Shown here: one piece after another, positions 8,039 through 20,680 of the stretch
Position numbering within the stretch: the first letter of the stretch is position 1
Layout of the letters: each line of letters starts with the position of its first letter
Notes under the pieces: model-generated
What the model saw: the letters and a program-made list of their open reading frames with translations, nothing else
What the model was told of the DNA's origin: nothing
Database searches by the model: none
IMG/VR virus record: IMGVR_UViG_3300009702_000017
Span: 100,315-121,050 of that record
Length of the DNA: 20,736 nucleotides
Reading direction: 5' to 3' (one strand)
Source: a virus
Program-made: the position numbers and the translations under genes

Positions 8039-8452
8039 AAGTGGACGTACTTCATTGTTATAGTCAAATGCGACAAAGGAAGCGCTTCCAAGCATTCGAG
8101 AGCCCACGCCCACTTGCCATTGTTGTTTGTTGATCTGACATCCATAAGCCTCGAAAATCACTGTATTGGTTACGCGATCCAGAAGCGTCATAGTGAAGTA
8201 GTTGGCCTTGGGGACATTGGCATAGATGGGCTTGATGCCGTTGCCTTCCAATCCACCGTCACGAACACGAACCATGCTAAGCTGACCTTGGATGGCCTGG
8301 ATTCCTGGTGAAATCTCAAACGGAGTAGCCTTGTCAATCCCCCTGCGCTGGATCTTCTGGTTCGTCTCATTGTAAGAGAAGCCAGTTACCTCCGCAAAGA
8401 AATTGCCGTTGATGTAGCACTTTACGTGTGCGCCTACGACTACCTGATTCAT
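8036..8452 (-). CDS. Tail-tube-fold protein (tube or baseplate tube initiator)
   Basis: 138 aa. GAHVKCYING..AEVTGFSY....RRGID...PFEI.PG...IQGQLS..R and FTMTLLDR......FEAYGCQI....W pattern typical of myophage tube-like proteins; ATGA coupling. Confidence 0.7.
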   Translation of the reverse strand: MNQVVVGAHVKCYINGNFFAEVTGFSYNETNQKIQRRGIDKATPFEISPGIQAIQGQLSMVRVRDGGLEGNGIKPIYANVPKANYFTMTLLDRVTNTVIFEAYGCQINKQQWQVGVGSRMLGSASFVAFDYNNEVRPL

Positions 8453-11400
8453 GCTCTCGCCTTCCTGTAGGCTTCGTCTACGTCTTCAGACCAGATACCT
8501 ACCTTCTCGCTCACCTTGTCTCCTGTGGTTGCGTAGCCGCCGTTCCCAAGGCCAATGTCGCTCGGGTACACCAAGTCTGCCACGAGTGGAATGCCAGTGG
8601 CGGCCACACGCTTCAACGCGGTCACTGCTGCGGCTGTTGCTGCGTTTGAGTCAGTTAAGAATGAGATACCCACGGATGCGGGGTCAGCTACATCGAGACT
8701 GGTTCTGGAAGTGAGGTAGATAACGCTTGCCCCAGCTGCCACTGTGACGGGGAAGCGATAGGTGGGGTCCAATACCAGTTGGGTAGAAGAGAGCTTATCC
8801 GTGTACTTCACTGGATAGATGGCGTTGTCGTTTCCATAGCCGATAGCAATATAGCCACTATTTGGAAAGGCTGTTGCATCTGCTACGGTGAGTACAAGGT
8901 AGCTTCTCTGCGTCACCAACTGCATTGTAGTCGTAGTGGCGTAGGCAGTGATTGATGGGCCATTGGGATCGAGTGAGAAGGGGCCCAAGAATGGAGATGT
9001 GGCAGCCGCTGTAGGCACAATGAGCGCGCTGGTCCCTTTGTAGTAAAGGGGTTCATCAGTGAAGGTGAATGTGGTGGCAGTCGGAGTGGTGAGAACAACC
9101 CCGTTGCGTGGCGGACGACCAATCTTGTCCGAACCAGGGATGAAAGCTGTCGAATAAGTAGGAGTTCCACTTGCGTTTGCACCAAGGCTCAATACAATCT
9201 CATTCGACAACTGTACCGAAGCAGAGTTGGCCTGACTGTACGGAGAAGGCTCGGGTACGAGTTCCCATTCGCCTGTCTCGACGTTGTAGTATTCGGCTTG
9301 AGTTACTGGGTTGCCAGATGCGTCTACTCCACCCCACACCAGTACCTTGTTGATACTGGCGATGAACTCTGCGTGACAGTAACGGCGGGCATACTTCATT
9401 GGCGGAATACTATATGAGTGAGTGTTGTTAGCTGTACCAAGCCAGTATAGCTCGGCATCATTAAGCACGCGATTGACACTTTCAAGGCGCTTGTTGCGTC
9501 CATACCCACCGACCACTAGCAACGTTCCGTTCTGCATGTCAGCTACGGCAAAGTTGCATCGTGCTACGTTAAGGGATGCAGTGCTCACCCAATAGCTACC
9601 GGCTATAGGAGTCATTTCATTACAGGTGTCAACAACCTCTGTGTTGGTGTCATCGAGTAGGATTGGCCCTGCACCTGCGCCACTTCCTAGGACAACGCCA
9701 GACGCGAGTTGCCGCCCACCCATGTTTAGGATGGCTGGTGAACCCCAGGCATCTACCCTGAGGGCTACTTGATCGTAGCAAGCATCTGGGAGCGTACCCA
9801 CCGCTACCACAGATCCAGTTGAGAAATCGTACTTCTCAACCGTGTTGGTTGGTGTTGCTCTATCTATGATACCACCGATCCAGTAGTTCTCGCCGTCAAC
9901 GACAACACCTTGTCCAAGTGCCCTTGGATTTAATGGTCCGGCACCAGGAATAGGAGTCCAACCGCTTGCTACATCGACGTATGTGTAGGCGTCTTGGAGT
10001 ACACCCGCCGCTGCGGAGTAACCTCCCCAGAAAATGGGATACTCGTCAATCACCATTCCGCCCATGGCGTAGCGGCGTGCTACGGCAATGGCTCCTGCGG
10101 AAGTAACGGTGTAGTCGTATTGAGTACGTCCGTCTGCGTCTCCACCACTCAACACAGCCGACCCGGTGAACGTGATGTAGGAAGACGTCGCGCTTTCTGT
10201 TGCACCGTCGTAGCCACCAACTAGCCATGCACCAGACCCATCGGTCTTTTTGATGACTAGCATGTCGTACAAGGTAGACGGCTGTGCTTGTGACCAGATG
10301 CTCATTTGTGATGCATCGAGCGTGTAAGGGGAGGTTGCAACTTGACCGGCGACGTGTGCGGGGAGTGAATAGTCGTTGGCTGGATTGTCAATGACAAAGG
10401 TATCGCCTACAGAGAGACCGTGAGAAGACGAGGTAGTAATCGTCGTAACCCCAGCTGTGGTACGCACGATGGAAGAAGCGTCTACAACGCTCCCGGGCGA
10501 GAGAAAGGAGGCTTGACCATTGCTTCGTTCGGTGATTGTAGAGGTGACAGGTAGATACGCTTCAGTCCCCTGATGTACGGAGATGAATGCTGACTTTGAG
10601 GCAGACTGAAGTGAAGCTGGCAATAAACGCCAGACAACGACGTCAGAAAGAGTGGTTGTAGTGACGCCTTGAGCTATTGCGTTGGAGTTGCTTACCTCTA
10701 CGTATTGGACTAGGGCAGAAGGTGTATCCACGAATACATTGGTTACTGGAAACGTACCACGATTGGCGTCATCGAATACGCCCCCAGACACATTCAAAAT
10801 GTCTCCGACCCTAACGCCTGCAAGAGTATTTGTACCCCCACTAGCGTCTGTGCTGATCTCGTATCTAGCCACTCCTGGTTCGGGAATTGTCACACTCCAT
10901 ACGTTGCCAACAGTATTGGACCATGGACTGGTACCGAACTGGAATGCATTCAAAGCGCTTCCGCCTGTCACTTGGATAAACGACCCAAGTCCCAACTCCT
11001 CGGAGAAGAGGACGAGCTTGCTGGTATTGGTAGTGGGATCGAGGTAGGCTGTAGCGTAGGCGCCCACACCCTGCCTATCCATTGCAGCTGTAATGACCGC
11101 CGCTACCTCGTTGACGGTGGCAGCTGCGATGTTAGCGAACTGGACTGCATGGAAGGTAACTCTAGCTGCGTGCTTGCGATTCACGAGGATGCTCAAGGTG
11201 TCACCGTCTACAAGAGCAAATGGTGACGAAGCATTGGTAACGACATGGGCTTGAGTGGCCATGTCTCCGTAGAATACGCCAAGTACCTGCATCAAAGCGT
11301 ATGGTGTGAGCTTATGAAACGCTTCGGTGAGAGCGAGAGCACGGAAGCTTTCGTCGCTCATTCCAATTTTATGGGACTTCTGCACACGGTAGTTGTTGGC

Positions 11401-11961
11401 CAGACGTGTCAGAAAAGGCCCTGTAGCAGTCTTAAGGAACAGCTGGTTGGTTGCTAGACGTGCATTGTCACGTTTGATGGTATCTCCGGTTGCCAAGGCG
11501 GCCACAACTGCATTCCACCCCGAGCCCGCGAACATAGGGGGCAGAAGGTCCTTGATGGAGTCTTCGGTATCGGGAGTGGTGGCTACACTAGGAGCGATAA
11601 CGTTAGCCCCTGCGGTCACTCCACTGTACATGAAAGAAAGGGATGTAGGAGACGTGAGAGGCGTACCAGAAAGTGTCTCGATGGCCGTTGACGCAGAGAC
11701 AGTCCAGTTACCAGTAGTGAGAGCACCAGACAAAAGCAAGTCAACCTGAAGCGTGTTTCCAGGCACGACGATAGCGTTTGTAACGGTGAGTGGTACTGTA
11801 CCGGTGAGAGTCCAGTTTGCTACGTTGAGCGCATCGTTCGTACCTGCGGGATCGCTTTGTTGCGGCGAATACGTGAACGTGACACGTAGGGACGCAGAGG
11901 TCAGTACAACAACCGATGACAACGCGAAGCTGCCTGAGCTAAATGTTGCTGTTGTTGTCAT
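8449..11961 (-). CDS. Large baseplate wedge-like protein (gpI/gp7 position) with N-terminal Ig-like domain and Kelch propeller
   Basis: QLFLKTATGPFLTRLANNY..GMSDESFRAL is wedge-like, as is the C-terminal ALKRVAATGIP. About 6-7 Kelch-type GG/Y/W repeats lie at about 9150-10290. TAATG coupling. Confidence 0.75.
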   Translation of the reverse strand: MTTTATFSSGSFALSSVVVLTSASLRVTFTYSPQQSDPAGTNDALNVANWTLTGTVPLTVTNAIVVPGNTLQVDLLLSGALTTGNWTVSASTAIETLSGTPLTSPTSLSFMYSGVTAGANVIAPSVATTPDTEDSIKDLLPPMFAGSGWNAVVAALATGDTIKRDNARLATNQLFLKTATGPFLTRLANNYRVQKSHKIGMSDESFRALALTEAFHKLTPYALMQVLGVFYGDMATQAHVVTNASSPFALVDGDTLSILVNRKHAARVTFHAVQFANIAAATVNEVAAVITAAMDRQGVGAYATAYLDPTTNTSKLVLFSEELGLGSFIQVTGGSALNAFQFGTSPWSNTVGNVWSVTIPEPGVARYEISTDASGGTNTLAGVRVGDILNVSGGVFDDANRGTFPVTNVFVDTPSALVQYVEVSNSNAIAQGVTTTTLSDVVVWRLLPASLQSASKSAFISVHQGTEAYLPVTSTITERSNGQASFLSPGSVVDASSIVRTTAGVTTITTSSSHGLSVGDTFVIDNPANDYSLPAHVAGQVATSPYTLDASQMSIWSQAQPSTLYDMLVIKKTDGSGAWLVGGYDGATESATSSYITFTGSAVLSGGDADGRTQYDYTVTSAGAIAVARRYAMGGMVIDEYPIFWGGYSAAAGVLQDAYTYVDVASGWTPIPGAGPLNPRALGQGVVVDGENYWIGGIIDRATPTNTVEKYDFSTGSVVAVGTLPDACYDQVALRVDAWGSPAILNMGGRQLASGVVLGSGAGAGPILLDDTNTEVVDTCNEMTPIAGSYWVSTASLNVARCNFAVADMQNGTLLVVGGYGRNKRLESVNRVLNDAELYWLGTANNTHSYSIPPMKYARRYCHAEFIASINKVLVWGGVDASGNPVTQAEYYNVETGEWELVPEPSPYSQANSASVQLSNEIVLSLGANASGTPTYSTAFIPGSDKIGRPPRNGVVLTTPTATTFTFTDEPLYYKGTSALIVPTAAATSPFLGPFSLDPNGPSITAYATTTTMQLVTQRSYLVLTVADATAFPNSGYIAIGYGNDNAIYPVKYTDKLSSTQLVLDPTYRFPVTVAAGASVIYLTSRTSLDVADPASVGISFLTDSNAATAAAVTALKRVAATGIPLVADLVYPSDIGLGNGGYATTGDKVSEKVGIWSEDVDEAYRKARA

Positions 11962-12635
11962 TAGGCCGCATTCCCAACCAAATCACGGACACCAGCTGCG
12001 CTTACCACATAGGTAGTAGCTGGATCCATCTCTTCTGTTACCAGTATGTATACTTGATCCGTCTCCTTAAAGATTGAGAGGATGGTAAGAGCAGGCGAGA
12101 TAGAGTAGTTGGTTGGATCCGTGGCGTCTGTGGTGTTGACTGATTCAGAAAAGGCAACTCGAATGTGGGTGCTGTTTAGCCATGTTCCATTGACAAACGT
12201 AGGCGCCACACCAGAACCAATAAAGGTGAATGAGTAGCTGCCTGCGTAGGCACCGCTTCCATCCGCACTCACAATACCAGCTGGCAATGATAGTGAGTAG
12301 ACACCATCTGTCTCTTGCTCTGTTGTCCCAAGTACAATGCTACTCGAATTGACAGTAAGGGAAGCGATAGATACTGCCGCAGCACCAGTCGTACTGATGG
12401 AGTATTTTGTTTGGTCAAGTGCGTCTCCGCTCACCGTAATAGGTGCGGTGAAGTTCAACGTTAGCAATCCAGCGCTTGCGGACAATGTAGCAGTTAGAGG
12501 TGCGGGTCCAGATGTAGGAGCATCGAAGAGCGCATTGATTCCCTGCATTGGCGTACTCGCGGGACGTGCGTAGATTGGAGTACCGACAAGAAAGCTCTCG
12601 GGGAACAAAATGTGGATCCCAGTGTAAGTAGCCAT
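11961..12635 (-). CDS. Virion protein with two bacterial Ig-like domains
   Basis: LTLNFTAPI....ALDQTKYSI....YSLSLPAGIVSADG and IRVAFSESV...ATDPTNYSIS...TTYVVSAAGVRDLVGN are SbsA/Big_5-type Ig-like signatures. Confidence 0.8.
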   Translation of the reverse strand: MATYTGIHILFPESFLVGTPIYARPASTPMQGINALFDAPTSGPAPLTATLSASAGLLTLNFTAPITVSGDALDQTKYSISTTGAAAVSIASLTVNSSSIVLGTTEQETDGVYSLSLPAGIVSADGSGAYAGSYSFTFIGSGVAPTFVNGTWLNSTHIRVAFSESVNTTDATDPTNYSISPALTILSIFKETDQVYILVTEEMDPATTYVVSAAGVRDLVGNAA

Positions 12636-12642
12636 CGTATGC

Positions 12643-13680
12643 CTATGTAGTCCTCAAGGCAATCCCACCACCAGCACTACACAGCAAGAACTTCCATGTT
12701 TGTCTAGTAAGAGGATTGGCTGGGTCTGTAGCGTTAATGTCCGATTGATCTGCCCATGGCCTGTGGATATTTCGCAACCAGCTTGGAAGCTGGCCATAGA
12801 TACCGACTTGGCCACTGCTGTATTGATTATACATGATACTGGGAAGGAGAGATGCAACCGGCGCTGCTCCAACAAGAGAATCGTACCAGGATGATGCGTA
12901 GTAGGGATAGCAATCCACATAAACGTATGGATTGTTTGTGTTGCCGTTGATAGAGGTCGGCATATTGAATTGCGCGCCGCCCGTATCCCCCCATTTAACC
13001 CCTGGTTGCATTAAACCCATGGGTAGAGCGTTCAGTCCGACTAGGGAGCCAATAGAGAATGCAGAGCCCACCGCCGCCGATACCGTGATTGTGTTAGCTA
13101 CGGTATCTACCGCAGTAACCTCGACTAGAGCAACAGGTAGATTTGCTCCAGACTTATCAGCGGCATTGATAGATGTCACGTTGACCCAATCGTTTACTGC
13201 AAAGATCGAAGCGTCTACCACAGAGAGAACCGTGTCTGTAGAGAGCGCCGCCGTCGATAGAGTAGTGAACCCATTGGCTCCCAAGTATGAGTCATAGTAG
13301 CCGCTGAAACTGGTCTTCCAATAGCCACTATCCAAGGGGCCTACTACAAAGGCGCATGGGTTTGCGTCGTCTCCGGCGAAAACTCCATTGTAGGGCGCTG
13401 CTGGAACGGGCCAGTAAGTGCTTGAAACAGCATTGAGGAGGGTTACGTTATCGGTGTCTATAGCTGGAGCAACCTGGATTCGATTTGAACCGAAATTGTA
13501 TGGAAGGCACTTTACGTAGAGTGGTCGTCCATCGGCAGTCGTATTGTGAACCACCCAGTTGTCTCCATCTGTGTATGAGTCTTGGGTGTACCCGAGGGTA
13601 CTAATAAGCCAGTCGTGTAGACCCTGCATGAAGTCGGTCTTGTTGGTAAAGCCCGTCTGAATGTCTACGTGGTATGCCAT
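12643..13680 (-). CDS. Putative baseplate-associated structural protein
   Basis: Intact 345-aa ORF tightly packed between baseplate genes. The internal module TTLSTAALSTDTVLSVVDASIFAVNDWV...EVTAVDTVANTITVS resembles modules in the wedge proteins. Confidence 0.65.
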   Translation of the reverse strand: MAYHVDIQTGFTNKTDFMQGLHDWLISTLGYTQDSYTDGDNWVVHNTTADGRPLYVKCLPYNFGSNRIQVAPAIDTDNVTLLNAVSSTYWPVPAAPYNGVFAGDDANPCAFVVGPLDSGYWKTSFSGYYDSYLGANGFTTLSTAALSTDTVLSVVDASIFAVNDWVNVTSINAADKSGANLPVALVEVTAVDTVANTITVSAAVGSAFSIGSLVGLNALPMGLMQPGVKWGDTGGAQFNMPTSINGNTNNPYVYVDCYPYYASSWYDSLVGAAPVASLLPSIMYNQYSSGQVGIYGQLPSWLRNIHRPWADQSDINATDPANPLTRQTWKFLLCSAGGGIALRTT

Positions 13681-13682
13681 AA

Positions 13683-16600
13683 CTAGTCTCCTACGAACTT
13701 GATTGTGATGTCGGTTGTGGGGTTCAGTGTTACCGGCTTCTCGTATGCTTGTACTGAGATTAGGTCATTCCCACTGTTGTACGAAGGAGAAAGTACAACC
13801 ACAGACTCCACCCCATTAACCGTGGTGGCAGCCGCAACCAAGTCACTGATAGTGATTGACTTGCCCACACCGCTTCGGTTGATCTCAGAAGCGACTGCCC
13901 CACGAACAGAGTTTTCGATATTGGTACGGTCAACGCTAGTCCAGGTACGAACTAACAAGCTGATTTTGATATTGTGGATGAGTGGCCCGTCAATAAGCAC
14001 GTCGGCACCAGAGGCAAGCAGACCGGGGTAGGCTGGATTGTCCAGGTCGCCGTAGATTGTCTTGGTGGCCTCCTCGAGCAAGCCAGTCCCAGCCTTGTAT
14101 CCATCGGTACCAAGGTGTAAGCTTGTATTAAACGAGAGCTTATCCAAAGAGGTTACGGTAGCGTCATTATTCTCACTGATGCGAGTGAGACCATTATCGG
14201 TATCGAACTTGAGGAAGGTATGTAATCCATCCGTAGAAGGGAAGATACTATGGATGTGCTTCACCAACTTGTTTGGTGTGCCTTCAGTTACATAGATGGA
14301 GTCTACATGTGTTCCCAACGCACCTGGGCTTCCACTCACAGAGGCCATTGGTCTATTGGATACGTCTACGCTAAAGTTGTAGGTGCTGTCGATAGAAAGC
14401 ACGGTCCAAGTACCCTTGTTGCCGCTACCCCAGAAGTCATCTTCGATGTGGATTTGATCCCCAGGCATCAGGCTAGCCTGATTGTAGAAGGTGGCATTGA
14501 CATATACCTCGTCCTCTTCCACACCATTGGGATTCTCAATCCAGAACCCATGCATACCCGGGATCTTGGATACAGAACGCACGACGGGAAATGTACCTTG
14601 GTTGCTTGACGATAGCGCAGTACCAGAGGTAGGTGTGGAGATGGTTACGTAGTCGCCTTCTGAGCCCACGGTAGTCCCAGCTGCATCATAGATAAAATAA
14701 GCCATGTACTTACCGTGCTTCTCCACTCGGATGCGAGTGCTGATCATAGAGGCGGTGGTGGTACGGAAGGCGTTGGTGAGAGTAACCTTGCCATCTGGAG
14801 TGATCCTGGAAAGAGTAGTTGCTGTTGTGAAAGTAGCCTTTTGTGCGGCAGTATTATTGGCAACCTCTACCATATCGCCGGCATGGAATGGCAAAGCCTG
14901 CTCATTGGGAATGAGGATACTCGCATACCCGAGATCCCCATTGCTATAGCCGAAGGTTGGCGTACCATACAAATTGGCTACGGCTATGTTCGCGGTTCCA
15001 CCATCGGTCTGGATAGAACCCTCAGAGCCAAGGGTGAGAGATGAAAGCTGAACGCTCCCATTTGCGTAAGAGACTTCTCCAACGGAAGGCAAGCCAGAAA
15101 CACTAGGAAGTCCCATGTACGCTACTATAGATGCCGGCAGAATGGGAACCAAGTAGATGTTCTCGTTAAACCAGTCCACAGAGCTACCTGCCAGTGAAGC
15201 GTCTACGCTACGCTTGAATGACAGGCTGTAGTTCGTACCAGGGGCAGTTGTGGTCTGCACCCAGTTGATCCCATCGGCAAACGAGTAGTAGGAGCGATAG
15301 GCAGTGAAAGCGTCATTGGTAGAATGCAACACAGAGCCAGTAGGAGTGGTCCCGACGAACGTTCCGGTCATGGGGGCATACGAGATAGCGGCAACAGAAC
15401 TAATGATTGTGCTGATGCCACAGCCGGCCGTATCGAGAGGGAAGAAGGTGAGTAGCGGAGAAGTGCTTCCACCACCTACGCCATCGTTACCCCAAGTCAC
15501 TACGCCATTTCCAGTCACCTGCGTTCTGGTATAGCCTTGAGCATACTGGCTTCCTACGTTGACAAGCTGTACGACCGTCCCACGCACATTGACATCCACA
15601 TGCGAGTTGTCATCAAAGTAGACGAGATCGTTGGCTGCCAATGTAGGCAGAAGGGTTTCACTATATCCTGGCGTGATAGTGCCAATAGCTGTACCCGTTG
15701 TAGTAGCTGTTCCACCGTCATTATATACAACTGTTGCTCCTGTGGTTCCGGCTTGGGTCGTGTAAAGACCAGAGGGGAAGTTCGCGTCAGACGAATTGAG
15801 GTAGAATGCGACTCCAGTTCCCAATCCAGCATCGGTGACTGTGGCAAACGCAGTAGACGGTAGGGTGAGTGTCAGTGTGACAGTTGAGCCCGTGCGACTT
15901 GCAGAGGCAGCAGAAAAACCAGAGACTAGCGTGAGCTTAGTGTAATCGGCCGACGTACCATGAAAGGACAGACCAAACTTTGTGGTAGCGTTGATGGTCG
16001 CCGAGGTCTTCTCTGCACCGGAGGGGAGAATGACTGCGATGTCAGTGTGCTCAGCTGCGGTAGCGCTTGTACCATCGATAGAGATAGTCAAAGCCTTGTT
16101 TGGCGCAGTAGGGTAGTCGAAGTACATCCGAGCCGTGTCGCCATCTGCACCAAGCCTACTGTAACGCCACAGGGTAGCTAATGTGGGATCGGTAGAATGG
16201 CTTACGGTACGAGAGTGCATGAAGACGGCCCAGTCATTGAAGTCAAAGGAATCGCCGAATGTGTTGGCCAACGTGAGTCCTGTAGCTGCATCCACATACG
16301 AGTTGGTGTTACCATAGGTCGCACTGGTAGGACTCACCTTCACACCCATTGGGACGGAGAACGAATGGCTTCCATCAACCATCAAGTTGAGTGTGTCATC
16401 AGGAGAAATGGCGTATGGATGGACTAGCTCAATGCGATCATGCGGAAGCGTTGTACCAAAAGGGGTACGAAGCGTTAAAAACGAGCAACCGTAGTTGACG
16501 GCTTCAGGCGTGATAGATGCGATAGCGCTTTCGTATCCCACAAGCGAGCCATAGCGCTCTATGTCTCCAGTCTGAGTAGGATAGTACGGAGTATTCTTCA

Positions 16601-19600
16601 GACCCTTTAGCACCATGTCTTCACGAATGGCATAGAGGTTCTGTACCGCTGCGTCAGAACTGAAATTGTAGACAGACACACCAGCAGAGTTCACTCCCAA
16701 TACGTTATTGAAGAAAAAATGTGGGGTTCTGGTATCGTCTCCACGCACGTAAGCGTATGTACCATTGTCAGATACCTGTGCTGTAGCTGGCGAGAGTGCG
16801 ATTGGTGTGGTGTCAGTGGCAGCGACCAAAGCCACGTCTCCATGGCTTCCAAATGTGTTGGTGCGAACCCTCAACGAAGCAGTGTTGTGCACATAAGCAA
16901 ACGCGCCGTTTATGCTTCTGTTGATGTACTCCGCAATGGTAGGAGCGAGGTAGCCGAGCCCTCCACCAAGTGTAGTCATTTGAAGCGCCTTGTCGGTACG
17001 TGCGAACGCAATGCCTCCATTGATAAACGCACCCACCATTCTTCCGATGTCGTGTTGGAACTGGTTTTGGCTGGTATCCAGAATTTCTGATGTAGCTACC
17101 CCAAGAGTCTGATTGGCGAAGTCTGCGCGTCCACCTACCATCATCAATAGCGCGGTATCAATGTAGGCAGAACGAGCACCGATAATATAGTTAGGCGTGA
17201 GGTTGTTGGCGTAGCTGCCCACTGCCCATGGGCCAGTCCCACTCCCATCTGTCTGGATCTCTACGAGAGCAGTAGACGCTCCACCGCCCATGGCGTAGAG
17301 TGAACTGGTAGTGGCATCTACAAGCAAATCGAAATCATAGCGTGAGTGATTGAGGCTGTTCGCAGAGGTTGTCCATGTTCCTCCAGTTATACTGTATGTT
17401 TCTACGCTCGTAAGGGTTGTGATAGTACCAATCCATCCGATTCCGCCAGCTGCTACCACATCTCCAGATGCCAGGACTGCCATACCAAACAGACTGCGAG
17501 GGGTATTGAGTGCGCCCGTGCTTGAAAAGGTACCTGCGGTGTGAGAGTAGATTTCACATGTCGAGATAGGGTCAGAAGGGCTGATCTCTCCACCTGCAAT
17601 GAGTGCGTCTCCATTGGGCAAAAGCACCTGACTGTGATTGGCTCGTGCATTTACCATTGGGATGGCTGCGCTCCATGTATTTGTAGTAGGATCGTATACG
17701 TAACCGACAGAAGAATAGTTGTTGGCAGTCGTAGCAGTATCGTTTGCCACACCACCGGTCACGAGTACGGTCCCGTCTCCCAGGAGCGTGGCCCTGTGTT
17801 GTGCCAATGCGATTGGTAAAGGGGCGGCAAGGCTCCATGTTTTTGTAGTAGGGTCATATAGTTCACAGGTGTCTGTAGCTTGAACTGCACCTGAGTCCGC
17901 ATTGGTAAAGCCACCGGTCACGAGTACCTTGCCAGTATTTAGCAGTGTGGCTGTATGGTCGTAGCGTGCATTAGCAAGCGAACCCACCGCAGTCCAGGTG
18001 AGTGTGGTATGGTCATACTCTTCTGTGATTGTGGTACCTGTGATGCCACCAACAGCGAGACCTTTGTCAGTTGCGATCTTGGTGAAAGTATGCCCGGCCC
18101 GTAACGCATTTAGACCACGGATTTCGATGTCAATATAGGTTCCAAGCGCATCTACATATGCCACCCGATGGCTACCACGAAGTACGTCTGGAGCGGTGAA
18201 GTCCCATACGATCATCCAATCACCAGCTCGTACATTCAGAAATGGTGCGCCGCTGGAAGCAGTGAGACGATAACGATAACCCCATCTCTCGTAGCTATGG
18301 ACACCACCCGTGAATGATGTAGACGCTGTGATGCCCGTGTTCACTACTGCGCCGCCGCCATCTACCACAAACCACATGCTCAAGTCAGATGTCAGAGGCG
18401 CACCAGTTATAGTACCGGATTCAATGAACTGTCTGATGTTTGCTGTGCCTACAGATAGACTGTCCCCTGCATTGAGAGGTGTCTTCAGCTTGATGTCGCC
18501 ACTGAAGCGATCCAACGTGTAATCTGAATTTTTGCCAATGGACACAGCCACATTGAATACGCCGTTGTTGATGAGCGTACCACCTGAAACAATTAGCTTT
18601 GACCTAAAAGAGTTAGCTAGGTTGCTTTTCATCAATAAAGTGTTACCGTTGACAGTGACCGTCACGCCAGGAATGACATAGTTCAAAACAGATGCCCATG
18701 CATCGAGTGAGTTTGGACCAACAGACGTGAACTTGGTGCCTGCATCAACGAAGTCTTGGTCGGTAATGGTATAGGTGGTACTTGCAGTACCATCTACTGA
18801 TAGCGTAAGTGTCTGGTTGCCTATAAGCGCCTTCCACTCACTGAAGCTGTTTCCCATTAGGGTTGCGGTCTTCCCGTCCCTGGACAAAAGTACGTCATTG
18901 CGATAGAGCCACAGAGTATCTGTCAGTGTGGTGGTGAACCCAAGAGCATCGTTGGCGTCTGTATAGGCTGTCTCCGCTGTCGTCACCTTTAGATACTCAT
19001 TGGTATGTGCCTTGGAAAATAAAGCTACCTGCGTGCCACTGTTGACAGTCCTGGCGCCAAAAGCGAGGGTGTTGTCGCGGTTGATTGAGGCAGCTATCTC
19101 ATAGGCAGTCGCAGCGCCAATGTCTCGGAAGTCGGCTGCCTCAAAGTAATGGACCGCAATGGCGTCTCCCACTATCACACGGAGTTGTGCGCCTGCGGTC
19201 AGGGTAAATGGTGCGCTTGATATAGATTGTACAAACGCCTTGGCTACTGGCACATTGGAGAGCTTGAAATATTGCTCACCACCTACCGCTGCCTCCACAA
19301 GAGGCTCACTGGGAATGGCATCGTAAGAGGGTTCGTATCCATTTCCATCATCAATGTACAGAACAGTCGGCTCACCCACACGCTTCACTAACTTTGATGA
19401 TGTGATGCGCTTGTTGTCTGTACTAGAGGTAAGCCCCAGTACACCATACTCAATAGCCGAGTCTACACCACCAATGACTCTGGAGGCTTCGATTGTGCGC
19501 AAACGATCGCGGTACTCTTCTATTGTCTCCGCGTCTCTACCATTGCTGAACCTCAATGGATTGGTTACGATAGCGCCTGTAAATGGATCTGCTACAAAAC

Positions 19601-20330
19601 TGTTGATTGCACCAGGAGGAACGTTACCATTAGATCCCTTTGTTTTTGCTACAACCAATACATTTGATACAGTCATCTCACCATCAGGAATGATTGCATC
19701 ATACTTGGTCTCGTAGATGATTGCGTTAGCTGCATTGCCATTGGCTGTTTGAGCCTGTGTACCAGCTGCTATCAATCTGTCTCCACCCTGTCCAACGACC
19801 ACCGTCTCATCTGCGTTGTGAGCACGGGCAGTGGCAGTCGAAAGAGTGATAATCCAATAATCGCCAGAGTTGGTCACGGATGTATAAGCAAGCGGGCCCT
19901 CATAGTTCTCTGTACCAAAGCCAATGTATACGGTTCCAGTGGCGGGAAAGGTCGAGGCGTCCTTGACGTAGATATCCGTTGTCCCTACGACTGGAAGAGG
20001 CTGGCCCGCGTACACAGTCGAGTAGAGCTTGGTGTAGGTGCTATCGGTGATAGTGACATACCCATATGCCGCAGTCTGCTTCGTTGGAGGGTAAGCCTGA
20101 GCGATGTCCCTATTGTACAAGGCGGTGCCAGTAGCACGGTCAAGAGACTGGGCATTGAGTAGCTGGAAGATGTCCTGGGTGTCGTGTGTGTCCGACTGCG
20201 CCGCCGCCTCGATGAGAGCCAGGATAGGGCTGCCCACCTGGAGGCTGGGAATCCCATACCTCGACAGGAAAGAATCAATCATGTCCTGACGGATCTGTGC
20301 GTAGGAGCGTGGCGTGGGGTAGTCTGCCAT
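13683..20330 (-). CDS. Giant baseplate J-like (gp6-type) wedge protein with an inserted Kelch propeller, 2215 aa
   Basis: N-terminal J-like motifs RSYAQIRQDMI..GSPILALIEAAA, SLDRATGTAL, GSNGNVPPGAIN, VTNPLRFSNGRDAETIEEYRDR. C-terminal VRGAVASEINRSGVGKSITISDLVAAATTVNGVESV. About 7 Kelch repeats at about 17060-18115. Confidence 0.88.
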   Translation of the reverse strand: MADYPTPRSYAQIRQDMIDSFLSRYGIPSLQVGSPILALIEAAAQSDTHDTQDIFQLLNAQSLDRATGTALYNRDIAQAYPPTKQTAAYGYVTITDSTYTKLYSTVYAGQPLPVVGTTDIYVKDASTFPATGTVYIGFGTENYEGPLAYTSVTNSGDYWIITLSTATARAHNADETVVVGQGGDRLIAAGTQAQTANGNAANAIIYETKYDAIIPDGEMTVSNVLVVAKTKGSNGNVPPGAINSFVADPFTGAIVTNPLRFSNGRDAETIEEYRDRLRTIEASRVIGGVDSAIEYGVLGLTSSTDNKRITSSKLVKRVGEPTVLYIDDGNGYEPSYDAIPSEPLVEAAVGGEQYFKLSNVPVAKAFVQSISSAPFTLTAGAQLRVIVGDAIAVHYFEAADFRDIGAATAYEIAASINRDNTLAFGARTVNSGTQVALFSKAHTNEYLKVTTAETAYTDANDALGFTTTLTDTLWLYRNDVLLSRDGKTATLMGNSFSEWKALIGNQTLTLSVDGTASTTYTITDQDFVDAGTKFTSVGPNSLDAWASVLNYVIPGVTVTVNGNTLLMKSNLANSFRSKLIVSGGTLINNGVFNVAVSIGKNSDYTLDRFSGDIKLKTPLNAGDSLSVGTANIRQFIESGTITGAPLTSDLSMWFVVDGGGAVVNTGITASTSFTGGVHSYERWGYRYRLTASSGAPFLNVRAGDWMIVWDFTAPDVLRGSHRVAYVDALGTYIDIEIRGLNALRAGHTFTKIATDKGLAVGGITGTTITEEYDHTTLTWTAVGSLANARYDHTATLLNTGKVLVTGGFTNADSGAVQATDTCELYDPTTKTWSLAAPLPIALAQHRATLLGDGTVLVTGGVANDTATTANNYSSVGYVYDPTTNTWSAAIPMVNARANHSQVLLPNGDALIAGGEISPSDPISTCEIYSHTAGTFSSTGALNTPRSLFGMAVLASGDVVAAGGIGWIGTITTLTSVETYSITGGTWTTSANSLNHSRYDFDLLVDATTSSLYAMGGGASTALVEIQTDGSGTGPWAVGSYANNLTPNYIIGARSAYIDTALLMMVGGRADFANQTLGVATSEILDTSQNQFQHDIGRMVGAFINGGIAFARTDKALQMTTLGGGLGYLAPTIAEYINRSINGAFAYVHNTASLRVRTNTFGSHGDVALVAATDTTPIALSPATAQVSDNGTYAYVRGDDTRTPHFFFNNVLGVNSAGVSVYNFSSDAAVQNLYAIREDMVLKGLKNTPYYPTQTGDIERYGSLVGYESAIASITPEAVNYGCSFLTLRTPFGTTLPHDRIELVHPYAISPDDTLNLMVDGSHSFSVPMGVKVSPTSATYGNTNSYVDAATGLTLANTFGDSFDFNDWAVFMHSRTVSHSTDPTLATLWRYSRLGADGDTARMYFDYPTAPNKALTISIDGTSATAAEHTDIAVILPSGAEKTSATINATTKFGLSFHGTSADYTKLTLVSGFSAASASRTGSTVTLTLTLPSTAFATVTDAGLGTGVAFYLNSSDANFPSGLYTTQAGTTGATVVYNDGGTATTTGTAIGTITPGYSETLLPTLAANDLVYFDDNSHVDVNVRGTVVQLVNVGSQYAQGYTRTQVTGNGVVTWGNDGVGGGSTSPLLTFFPLDTAGCGISTIISSVAAISYAPMTGTFVGTTPTGSVLHSTNDAFTAYRSYYSFADGINWVQTTTAPGTNYSLSFKRSVDASLAGSSVDWFNENIYLVPILPASIVAYMGLPSVSGLPSVGEVSYANGSVQLSSLTLGSEGSIQTDGGTANIAVANLYGTPTFGYSNGDLGYASILIPNEQALPFHAGDMVEVANNTAAQKATFTTATTLSRITPDGKVTLTNAFRTTTASMISTRIRVEKHGKYMAYFIYDAAGTTVGSEGDYVTISTPTSGTALSSSNQGTFPVVRSVSKIPGMHGFWIENPNGVEEDEVYVNATFYNQASLMPGDQIHIEDDFWGSGNKGTWTVLSIDSTYNFSVDVSNRPMASVSGSPGALGTHVDSIYVTEGTPNKLVKHIHSIFPSTDGLHTFLKFDTDNGLTRISENNDATVTSLDKLSFNTSLHLGTDGYKAGTGLLEEATKTIYGDLDNPAYPGLLASGADVLIDGPLIHNIKISLLVRTWTSVDRTNIENSVRGAVASEINRSGVGKSITISDLVAAATTVNGVESVVVLSPSYNSGNDLISVQAYEKPVTLNPTTDITIKFVGD
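17060..18115 (-). repeat. About seven Kelch repeats inside the baseplate J-like gene
   Basis: For example LANARYDHTATLLNTGKVLVTGG..ELYDPTTKTWS, QHRATLLGDGTVLVTGG..YDPTTNTWS and ARANHSQVLLPNGDALIAGG. Confidence 0.9.
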
Positions 20331-20335
20331 GCCTC

Positions 20336-20349
20336 ATAGATTGTGGCTA
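20336..20349 (-). promoter_or_regulatory. Candidate late promoter TAGCCACAATCTAT heading the baseplate operon
   Basis: Ends 5 nt before ATG 20330; identical to 8025-8038. Confidence 0.65.
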
Positions 20350-20482: not shown

Positions 20483-20680
20483 ATGATTGTCATACACCAC
20501 ATCAACGGAACCGAAATCTATACCAGCCAAGCAACTACTAACGCCAAGAAGGCTCTTGAGGAGGGAGTCAAGAAGGGGTTTTCTTTCAAGAGTGCCGATC
20601 TGGTTGGTGCCTATCTGAAGTATGCCAATCTGGCTGGTGCCGATCTGGAGGGTGCCGATCTGGAAGGGCAGTGGCTGTAA
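20483..20680 (+). CDS. Short pentapeptide-repeat protein, possibly truncated
   Basis: GAGGA RBS. Repeats SADLV GAYLK YANLA GADLE GADLE follow an N-terminal leader of the kind seen in phage pentapeptide proteins. Confidence 0.75.
   Translation: MIVIHHINGTEIYTSQATTNAKKALEEGVKKGFSFKSADLVGAYLKYANLAGADLEGADLEGQWL
20591..20665 (+). repeat. Five imperfect 15-bp tandem repeats (NNTGCCNATCTGNNN)
   Basis: agtgccgatctggtt ggtgcctatctgaag tatgccaatctggct ggtgccgatctggag ggtgccgatctggaa. Confidence 0.9.

Follow-up and report, generated by a model that had tools for sequence, protein, structure and literature searches.

A giant baseplate J-like wedge protein of an Mx1-related myovirus, with an optional Kelch propeller nested between the halves of its split core

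The stretch of viral DNA analyzed here (hereafter the window; 20,736 nucleotides, positions 100,315 to 121,050 of the IMG/VR record IMGVR_UViG_3300009702_000017) is the final 20.7 kb of a 121-kb contig with an estimated completeness of 74%. On its minus strand, at positions 13683-20330, the list of open reading frames (ORFs) and their translations shows a single uninterrupted ORF of 2215 codons, which encodes a giant baseplate J-like wedge protein (P0001). The predicted product begins with the motif MA.(I)PTPRSY, which is common to its homologs, and the sequence GAGG lies immediately 5' of the ATG; an AATCTA motif is found directly upstream of both (20331-20345, minus strand). Compared with phage genomes by megablast, the entire window returned no match, and the sole cultured relative in the phage collection, recovered by tblastn, is Myxococcus phage Mx1; the source of the gene is an uncultured myovirus related to that phage. 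IMG/VR contains 159 loci that encode a relative of the giant J protein, many of them on contigs of 165-182 kb, comparable to the 169.6-kb genome of Mx1. Eighty of these loci were fetched for the locus analyses described below, and they yielded 76 alignable ORFs. As most of the fetched loci retain the gene as one ORF, we rejected the possibility that the 2215-residue product is an artefact of misassembly or gene fusion.

The first 330 residues of the protein (19341-20330; this and all further features of the gene are on the minus strand) constitute the N-terminal half of a J core, comprising three helices and a Baseplate_J domain, as indicated by Pfam, PHROG and PDB profile matches and by an AlphaFold model of residues 1-1135 (model A; predicted local distance difference test score, pLDDT, of 81). 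The Pfam Baseplate_J family (PF04865) matches residues 169-295 (19446-19826) with 40.3 bits (E=2.9e-10), above the gathering cut-off of 21.1, and the protein scores 45.2 bits with the same family in the genome-wide search. It is also matched by PHROG 6, annotated as 'baseplate wedge subunit' (E=3e-21), and a profile built from 86 family members recovered solved Baseplate J proteins from the PDB, namely 9g8s_C (E=1e-9), 9euf_C (E=2.5e-8) and 8kea_b. In model A the helices span residues 10-25, 35-60 and 69-78, with pLDDT values of about 90.

The C-terminal half of the core, residues 2115-2215 (13686-13988), was recognized through Foldseek and VIA structural matches. Neither Pfam searches with the last 400 residues and with other slices on their own nor a comparison of a profile of the C-terminal half with PDB sequences gave a useful match, and the assignment of this domain therefore rests on the predicted structure. 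In a second AlphaFold model, covering residues 1084-2215 (model B; pLDDT 83.6, predicted template-modelling score 0.76), the C-terminal domain of the R-pyocin protein PA0618 is superimposable on residues ~2115-2215 (5ces; Foldseek probability 1.0, TMt 0.72; VIA Z 10.9, with a root-mean-square deviation, rmsd, of 2.9 over 90 of 91 residues). VIA further aligned this domain with T4 gp6 (3h2t; Z 10.5), ORF62 of phi812 (Z 10.5), 9euf_C (Z 10.5) and Mu gp47 (9ki1_H; Z 9.9), and additional structural matches include gp31 of A-1(L) and the corresponding proteins of diffocin, AlgoCIS, PVC and AFP. A homolog from a complete genome of ~170 kb displays the same division directly in profile matches, with positions 33-132 of the Baseplate_J profile aligned near the N-terminus of one ORF and positions 192-254 aligned some 1500 residues later, near its C-terminus. 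An N-terminal Baseplate_J domain followed by a C-terminal domain is likewise found in T4 gp6, P2 gpJ, Mu gp47, PA0618, TssF of the T6SS and Afp11/Pvc11. Canonical wedge proteins have only ~300-660 residues, whereas the giant J protein accommodates an additional ~1780 residues at a point equivalent to approximately position 205-215 of the ~350-residue members. We conclude that the gene encodes a J protein of the gp6/gpJ/gp47/TssF wedge family. Furthermore, the giant protein is the sole PF04865 match in the complete genome of Mx1 and in each of two other complete genomes, of ~170 kb, so that it probably represents the genuine wedge subunit of the virus.

The chain that separates the two J halves is mostly composed of beta strands in both models. 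It starts with alpha/beta and beta modules peculiar to the giant family (residues 331-746; 18093-19340), which were delimited by family identity and model A and end in a barrel with the signature 'GDWMIVWD...RVAYVD' that hosts the propeller described below. No Pfam family matched this segment; model A shows pLDDT values of 80-95 across it, and residues 1-746 as a whole share 44-49% identity with the nearest representatives of the family. Following the propeller, residues 1100-2077 (14100-17033) form a set of beta domains in model B, delineated by the model itself, by the ranges of VIA alignments and by insertion hot spots in the family. These include a domain resembling FliD-D2/D3 and an XM1 baseplate domain (residues 108-993 of the model), an endosialidase-type beta-barrel at protein residues ~1470-1556 (387-472 of the model) and a barrel resembling domain II of EF-Tu (700-979 of the model). 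The first and last aligned residues of such matches lie hundreds of residues apart, which indicates that domains are nested inside domains. Immediately before the C-terminal J domain is a linker of residues 2078-2114 (13989-14099), marked out by family conservation and model B pLDDT, in which Y2078, G2083, Y2093, G2094, Y2101, P2102 and G2103 are invariant or nearly so across the family. Its pLDDT is just 34-53 (residues 995-1031 of model B), and it presumably becomes ordered only within the assembled wedge.

Residues 747-1099 (17034-18092) contain a seven-repeat Kelch beta-propeller, identified by Pfam, self-alignment, Foldseek and VIA, that constitutes a nested, optional insertion at a position we term site A. 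Pfam reports Kelch_4, Kelch_1 and Kelch_6 in this region with 81.7, 69 and 59.4 bits respectively (E values of 1e-16 to 1e-23), and the segment can be cut into seven units that fit one pattern, H..t.L...g.l..GG ... E.YD..t.tW. The propeller model is matched by Keap1 (VIA Z 26.3 over 271 aligned residues; Foldseek E=1e-17, probability 1.0) and, in comparisons made at the level of the fold, by AA5 copper oxidases (Z 25, rmsd 2.8 over 283 residues) and the sialic acid mutarotase YjhT/NanM (Z 24.5). Its longest superposition, over 305 residues, is with the Photorhabdus PLL lectin (5c9o; Z 23.1), which is likewise 7-bladed but shares only 12% identity and belongs to another repeat family. Lectins and sugar-handling propellers are thus among its close structural matches. 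All seven GG motifs are retained in 52 homologous inserts; conservation across these is restricted to the GG, W, R/H and E/Y/D positions of the repeat framework, and no polar residue outside that framework is conserved among them. The Pfam NANM family matches the propeller below its cut-off (23.2 bits against 45). Outside the family, the look-alikes of the propeller are ordinary bacterial Kelch proteins with 35-45% identity, some from Myxococcaceae and many automatically named as mutarotases. When a phylogeny of the propeller against bacterial Kelch proteins was attempted, a contiguous alignment of 230 or more profile positions was obtained for only 1 of 122 outside proteins, as the register of Kelch repeats is ambiguous.

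A sequence-only reading of the window, made without database searches, had already proposed a J-like wedge protein with a long insertion, in which J-like motifs occupy about the first 330 and the last 100 residues and roughly 1800 residues of beta modules, including about seven Kelch repeats folding as a propeller, lie between them. The profile matches to Pfam, PHROG 6 and solved structures bear out its N-terminal part, and the superposition on PA0618, T4 gp6 and Mu gp47 its C-terminal part; the length and predominantly beta character of the intervening ~1780 residues agree with what it stated; and the Kelch matches in Pfam, the self-alignment into seven repeats and the Keap1 comparison uphold the propeller. 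Its further suggestion, of a ring of propellers displayed by the wedge itself for adhesion or receptor sensing apart from the fibers, is a hypothesis.

Comparison with Mx1 reveals the nature of the Kelch segment. The Mx1 protein WNM70274.1 (genome OR576727.2; 1925 residues), annotated as 'baseplate protein J-like protein', belongs to the same family and is built on the same scaffold, with identities to the giant J protein of 40% (residues 1-746) and 31% (residues 1084-2215). Unlike the protein from the window, it has no residues corresponding to 747-1083 and no Kelch match; as its two alignment blocks abut, residues 747-1083 are an insertion. The same situation is seen across the alignment of 76 locus ORFs, where Kelch-less members have just 1-20 residues between the columns of residues 746 and 1084, which shows that the propeller is a cleanly nested insertion. 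Kelch repeats are present in 18 of these ORFs, including the near-identical L005, L007 and L011. Among 138 full-length representatives clustered at 50% identity, 51 have Kelch at site A, 4 at a second site and 1 in a longer form, the remaining 82 having none. The expectation from the earlier reading that the propeller might prove a variable insertion thus held, given its absence from Mx1 and from ~59% of the representatives and its clean junction.

This variation is set against a widespread family. An exhaustive search recovered 405 clusters at 50% identity (E<=1e-30), and the 150 best representatives listed are mostly 1750-2770 residues in length; the matches of a word-indexed search fell into at least 234 clusters when grouped at 90% identity. 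Approximately 1770 core alignment columns are common to the family, interrupted by several insertion hot spots of which site A is the largest. The Pfam family PF26079, precomputed for relatives, was not reproduced with our Pfam search.

When the presence or absence of Kelch was mapped on a FastTree phylogeny of the N-terminal 720 residues, for which branch supports are approximate, 11 changes were required, at least 7 of them forced by well-supported branches. At the same time, for 51 Kelch-bearing members, 19 of 21 strong splits in the propeller tree are also present in the tree of the N-terminal part, with a single conflict. This concordance fits an old insertion that was inherited vertically with the rest of the protein and repeatedly lost, a history suggested by these trees, although recombination of larger segments could also have contributed to the pattern.

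The second site, site B, is the loop of a barrel with the signature 'GDYVxI ... NxGxFRVVR', equivalent to the loop of residues 1901-1914 in the protein studied here (14589-14630). Six members lacking a site-A propeller have Kelch at this location, namely P0075 (residues ~1597-1950), L077:3690-10349 (~1555-1690), P0326, P0330, P0343 and P0361; the assignment is confirmed by Pfam in P0075 and L077. We also observed a Kelch-less sub-family (L049, L053 and L056-L082, with ORFs of ~2185-2350 residues) in which ~125 residues are inserted after the position of residue 1900 and ~225 after that of residue 1939, the first of these inserts being 290 residues long in L053. Pfam searches with the inserts of this sub-family found nothing.

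Downstream of the J gene, the window encodes a 1170-residue protein (8449-11961, minus strand) with its own divergent Kelch propeller, identified by Pfam Kelch matches and by synteny with Mx1 and most of the fetched loci. The gene order J, 1170-residue protein, 138-residue protein, 748-residue protein and endolysin is kept in Mx1, whose operon likewise comprises J, a Kelch-repeat protein, a ~140-residue protein, a ~700-residue protein and an endolysin, and in most of the fetched related loci. Only the N-terminal ~370 residues of the 1170-residue protein are conserved across the family (L001-L082), and its gene usually begins right after J; this conserved part may be a wedge partner of the gpI/TssG type. 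Inspection of the sequence suggests that its propeller too resides within a similar module ('GDTFVID ...'). The two propellers are only 27% identical, by which we could rule out a recent duplication of the J propeller from this neighbor. In the window, two extra genes that are absent from Mx1 separate the J gene from that of the 1170-residue protein. One encodes a 345-residue protein (12643-13680, minus strand) for which no relatives were found in Pfam, PHROGs or the PDB, and the other a 224-residue protein with a Big_5 Ig-like domain (11961-12635, minus strand) that recurs in only ~14 related loci. On the other side of the J gene, just upstream of it and at the extreme end of the contig, is a divergently transcribed ORF of 65 codons (20483-20680, plus strand), the C-terminal half of whose product consists of pentapeptide repeats (ADLVGAYLKYANLAGADLEGADLEG).

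Several elements of this picture are known already: the fold types, the J family and giant J-like proteins have all been recognized, and proteins of precisely this architecture are numerous in databases, where an automatic J-like annotation is attached to them. BFVD contains a true family member (A0A6J5L250; 34% identity, E=6.5e-93, TMt 0.76) named 'Baseplate protein J-like', as well as other giant J-like proteins. Other very large wedge proteins with many beta domains from uncultured Caudovirales and cyanomyoviruses, such as A0A6J5KUV1, A0A6J7WUL1 and those of Synechococcus phage ACG-2014f and the Bellamy gp7-like type, give only partial matches (TM scores of 0.05-0.19). As to whether the combination of J and Kelch had already been described and was common, the point raised by the earlier reading, it is indeed common (at least 55 of the 138 representative clusters and 18 of the 76 locus ORFs); we found no publication that describes a J protein with a Kelch insert, and the genome announcement of Mx1 does not mention the giant J-like protein. 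What is new here is the description of the split J core, of its nested sockets and of a Kelch module gained and lost at two sites. Kelch domains in virion proteins of jumbo phages (for example CBB_552 of vB_PcaM_CBB) have been called unusual, with their role unknown (PMC5259590). Those, as far as they can be likened by description, are separate virion proteins, whereas the Kelch domain of the giant J protein is inserted in the wedge subunit itself. Propellers act as sugar-binding modules in the fibers of phages and of extracellular contractile injection systems (PMC7048315, PMC12923769). The J propeller may also be likened to the receptor-binding 'platform' propellers of staphylococcal phage receptor-binding proteins.

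Host recognition by contractile-tailed phages is usually credited to their fibers or tailspikes, and proteins of the J/gp6 type are viewed as purely structural. In T4, Mu and the R-pyocin, the N-terminal helices, the J domain and the C-terminal domain of these proteins form the inner wedge and ring. The corresponding core of the giant J protein would build the inner wedge ring in the same manner, and, as by this analogy the two J halves form the inner wedge, the chain inserted between them would have to project outward. The inserted domains may thereby reach the periphery of the baseplate and substitute for the peripheral proteins that are separate in T4. There the propeller would be shown, twelve times in each virion provided that every wedge has two J proteins as in other systems, with its variable top and side loops offering a low-affinity surface for a glycan or protein of the host envelope. 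Such a surface could add adhesion or receptor sensing to the contribution of the fibre-like proteins encoded downstream. Based on these considerations we propose, as the explanation that probably accounts best for the observations as a whole, that the protein is a wedge subunit whose core is split and whose optional propeller is displayed peripherally for host binding. That the propeller itself binds a component of the host envelope we regard as somewhat better than an even proposition, judging from sequence features. A binding role is favored by the conservation of framework residues alone, by the sub-threshold NANM match and by the repeated recruitment of Kelch in the lineage; it fits the recurrence of Kelch at site B and in the 1170-residue neighbor.

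Certain points weigh against this proposal. The placement of the propeller at the exterior of the baseplate is deduced from the analogy with other systems, from which the number of J copies per virion is also taken, and the likeness to galactose oxidase and NanM was assessed at the level of the fold. AlphaFold is confident in six blades, with low pLDDT for residues 1035-1080 at the start of the seventh repeat. A second, divergent J paralog may lie below the detection limit of Pfam, and no partner of the gpI/TssG/gp7 type was recognized among the neighbors in Pfam and PHROG matches, in phmmer searches against the PDB or in an ESM Atlas look-up of the N-terminus of the 1170-residue protein. Finally, ~59% of the relatives, the cultured Mx1 among them, do without the propeller, which makes it accessory and not essential.

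Kelch propellers are classic modules of protein-protein interaction, and the first alternative to host binding is that the propeller is an internal docking platform for another virion protein, be it the 1170-residue protein, the 748-residue protein or a neighboring wedge. The best structural matches of the propeller, Keap1 and the KLHL substrate adaptors, would suit such a function, and the proteins encoded downstream accompany J as conserved members of its operon. Yet these proteins are present whether or not J has a propeller, Mx1 assembles without one, and the surface of the propeller is variable, contrary to what would be expected for a fixed partner; we consider docking unlikely. Less likely still is that the propeller is a tolerated passenger, a stabilizing or decorative domain that has no specific ligand and persists in some lineages through drift. 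Its many losses from a protein that otherwise persists, and the unrelated inserts at other hot spots of the scaffold, are in line with this idea; against it stand the intact framework motifs in all seven repeats at divergences down to ~30% identity and the independent acquisition of Kelch at the second site and in the neighboring protein. An enzymatic role on host surface sugars, either as a NanM-like mutarotase or as a radical copper oxidase like galactose oxidase, is improbable, for the fold-level resemblance to AA5 oxidases and YjhT/NanM, the weak Pfam NANM and Glyoxal_oxid_N matches here or in relatives and the automatic mutarotase names of the bacterial look-alikes are outweighed, in favor of binding, by the restriction of conservation to framework residues, by the poor NANM score and by the absence of AA5 domain 3, the source of one of the copper-ligand histidines. 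AA5 oxidases bind their copper through two Tyr and two His and have a Cys-Tyr cofactor.

Returning to the proposal of a peripherally displayed, host-binding propeller, a more far-reaching version, which we put forward only tentatively, is that the wedge protein is a main, modular receptor-binding device of Mx1-like phages, with its nested barrels serving as sockets whose loops accept ligand-binding cassettes (Kelch at two sites, with different inserts in other places). Such phages would then adjust their host range through the gain and loss of modules in an essential baseplate subunit and not by swaps of fiber tips. Should the propeller not bind the host, the present analysis would still provide a useful annotation for a widespread, uncharacterized giant protein. 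If it does, the family would be a natural case in which a core baseplate protein has had receptor-binding modules built into it. The precise boundaries of the insert are given by the natural members that have or lack it, and these could be used in the laboratory system of Mx1 and Myxococcus xanthus. In this large environmental family, which has at least 405 clusters at 50% identity and includes the classic myxophage Mx1, nested domains would have enlarged an essential wedge subunit six-fold, and the subunit would be able to accommodate a ligand-binding propeller, to lose it and to regain it.

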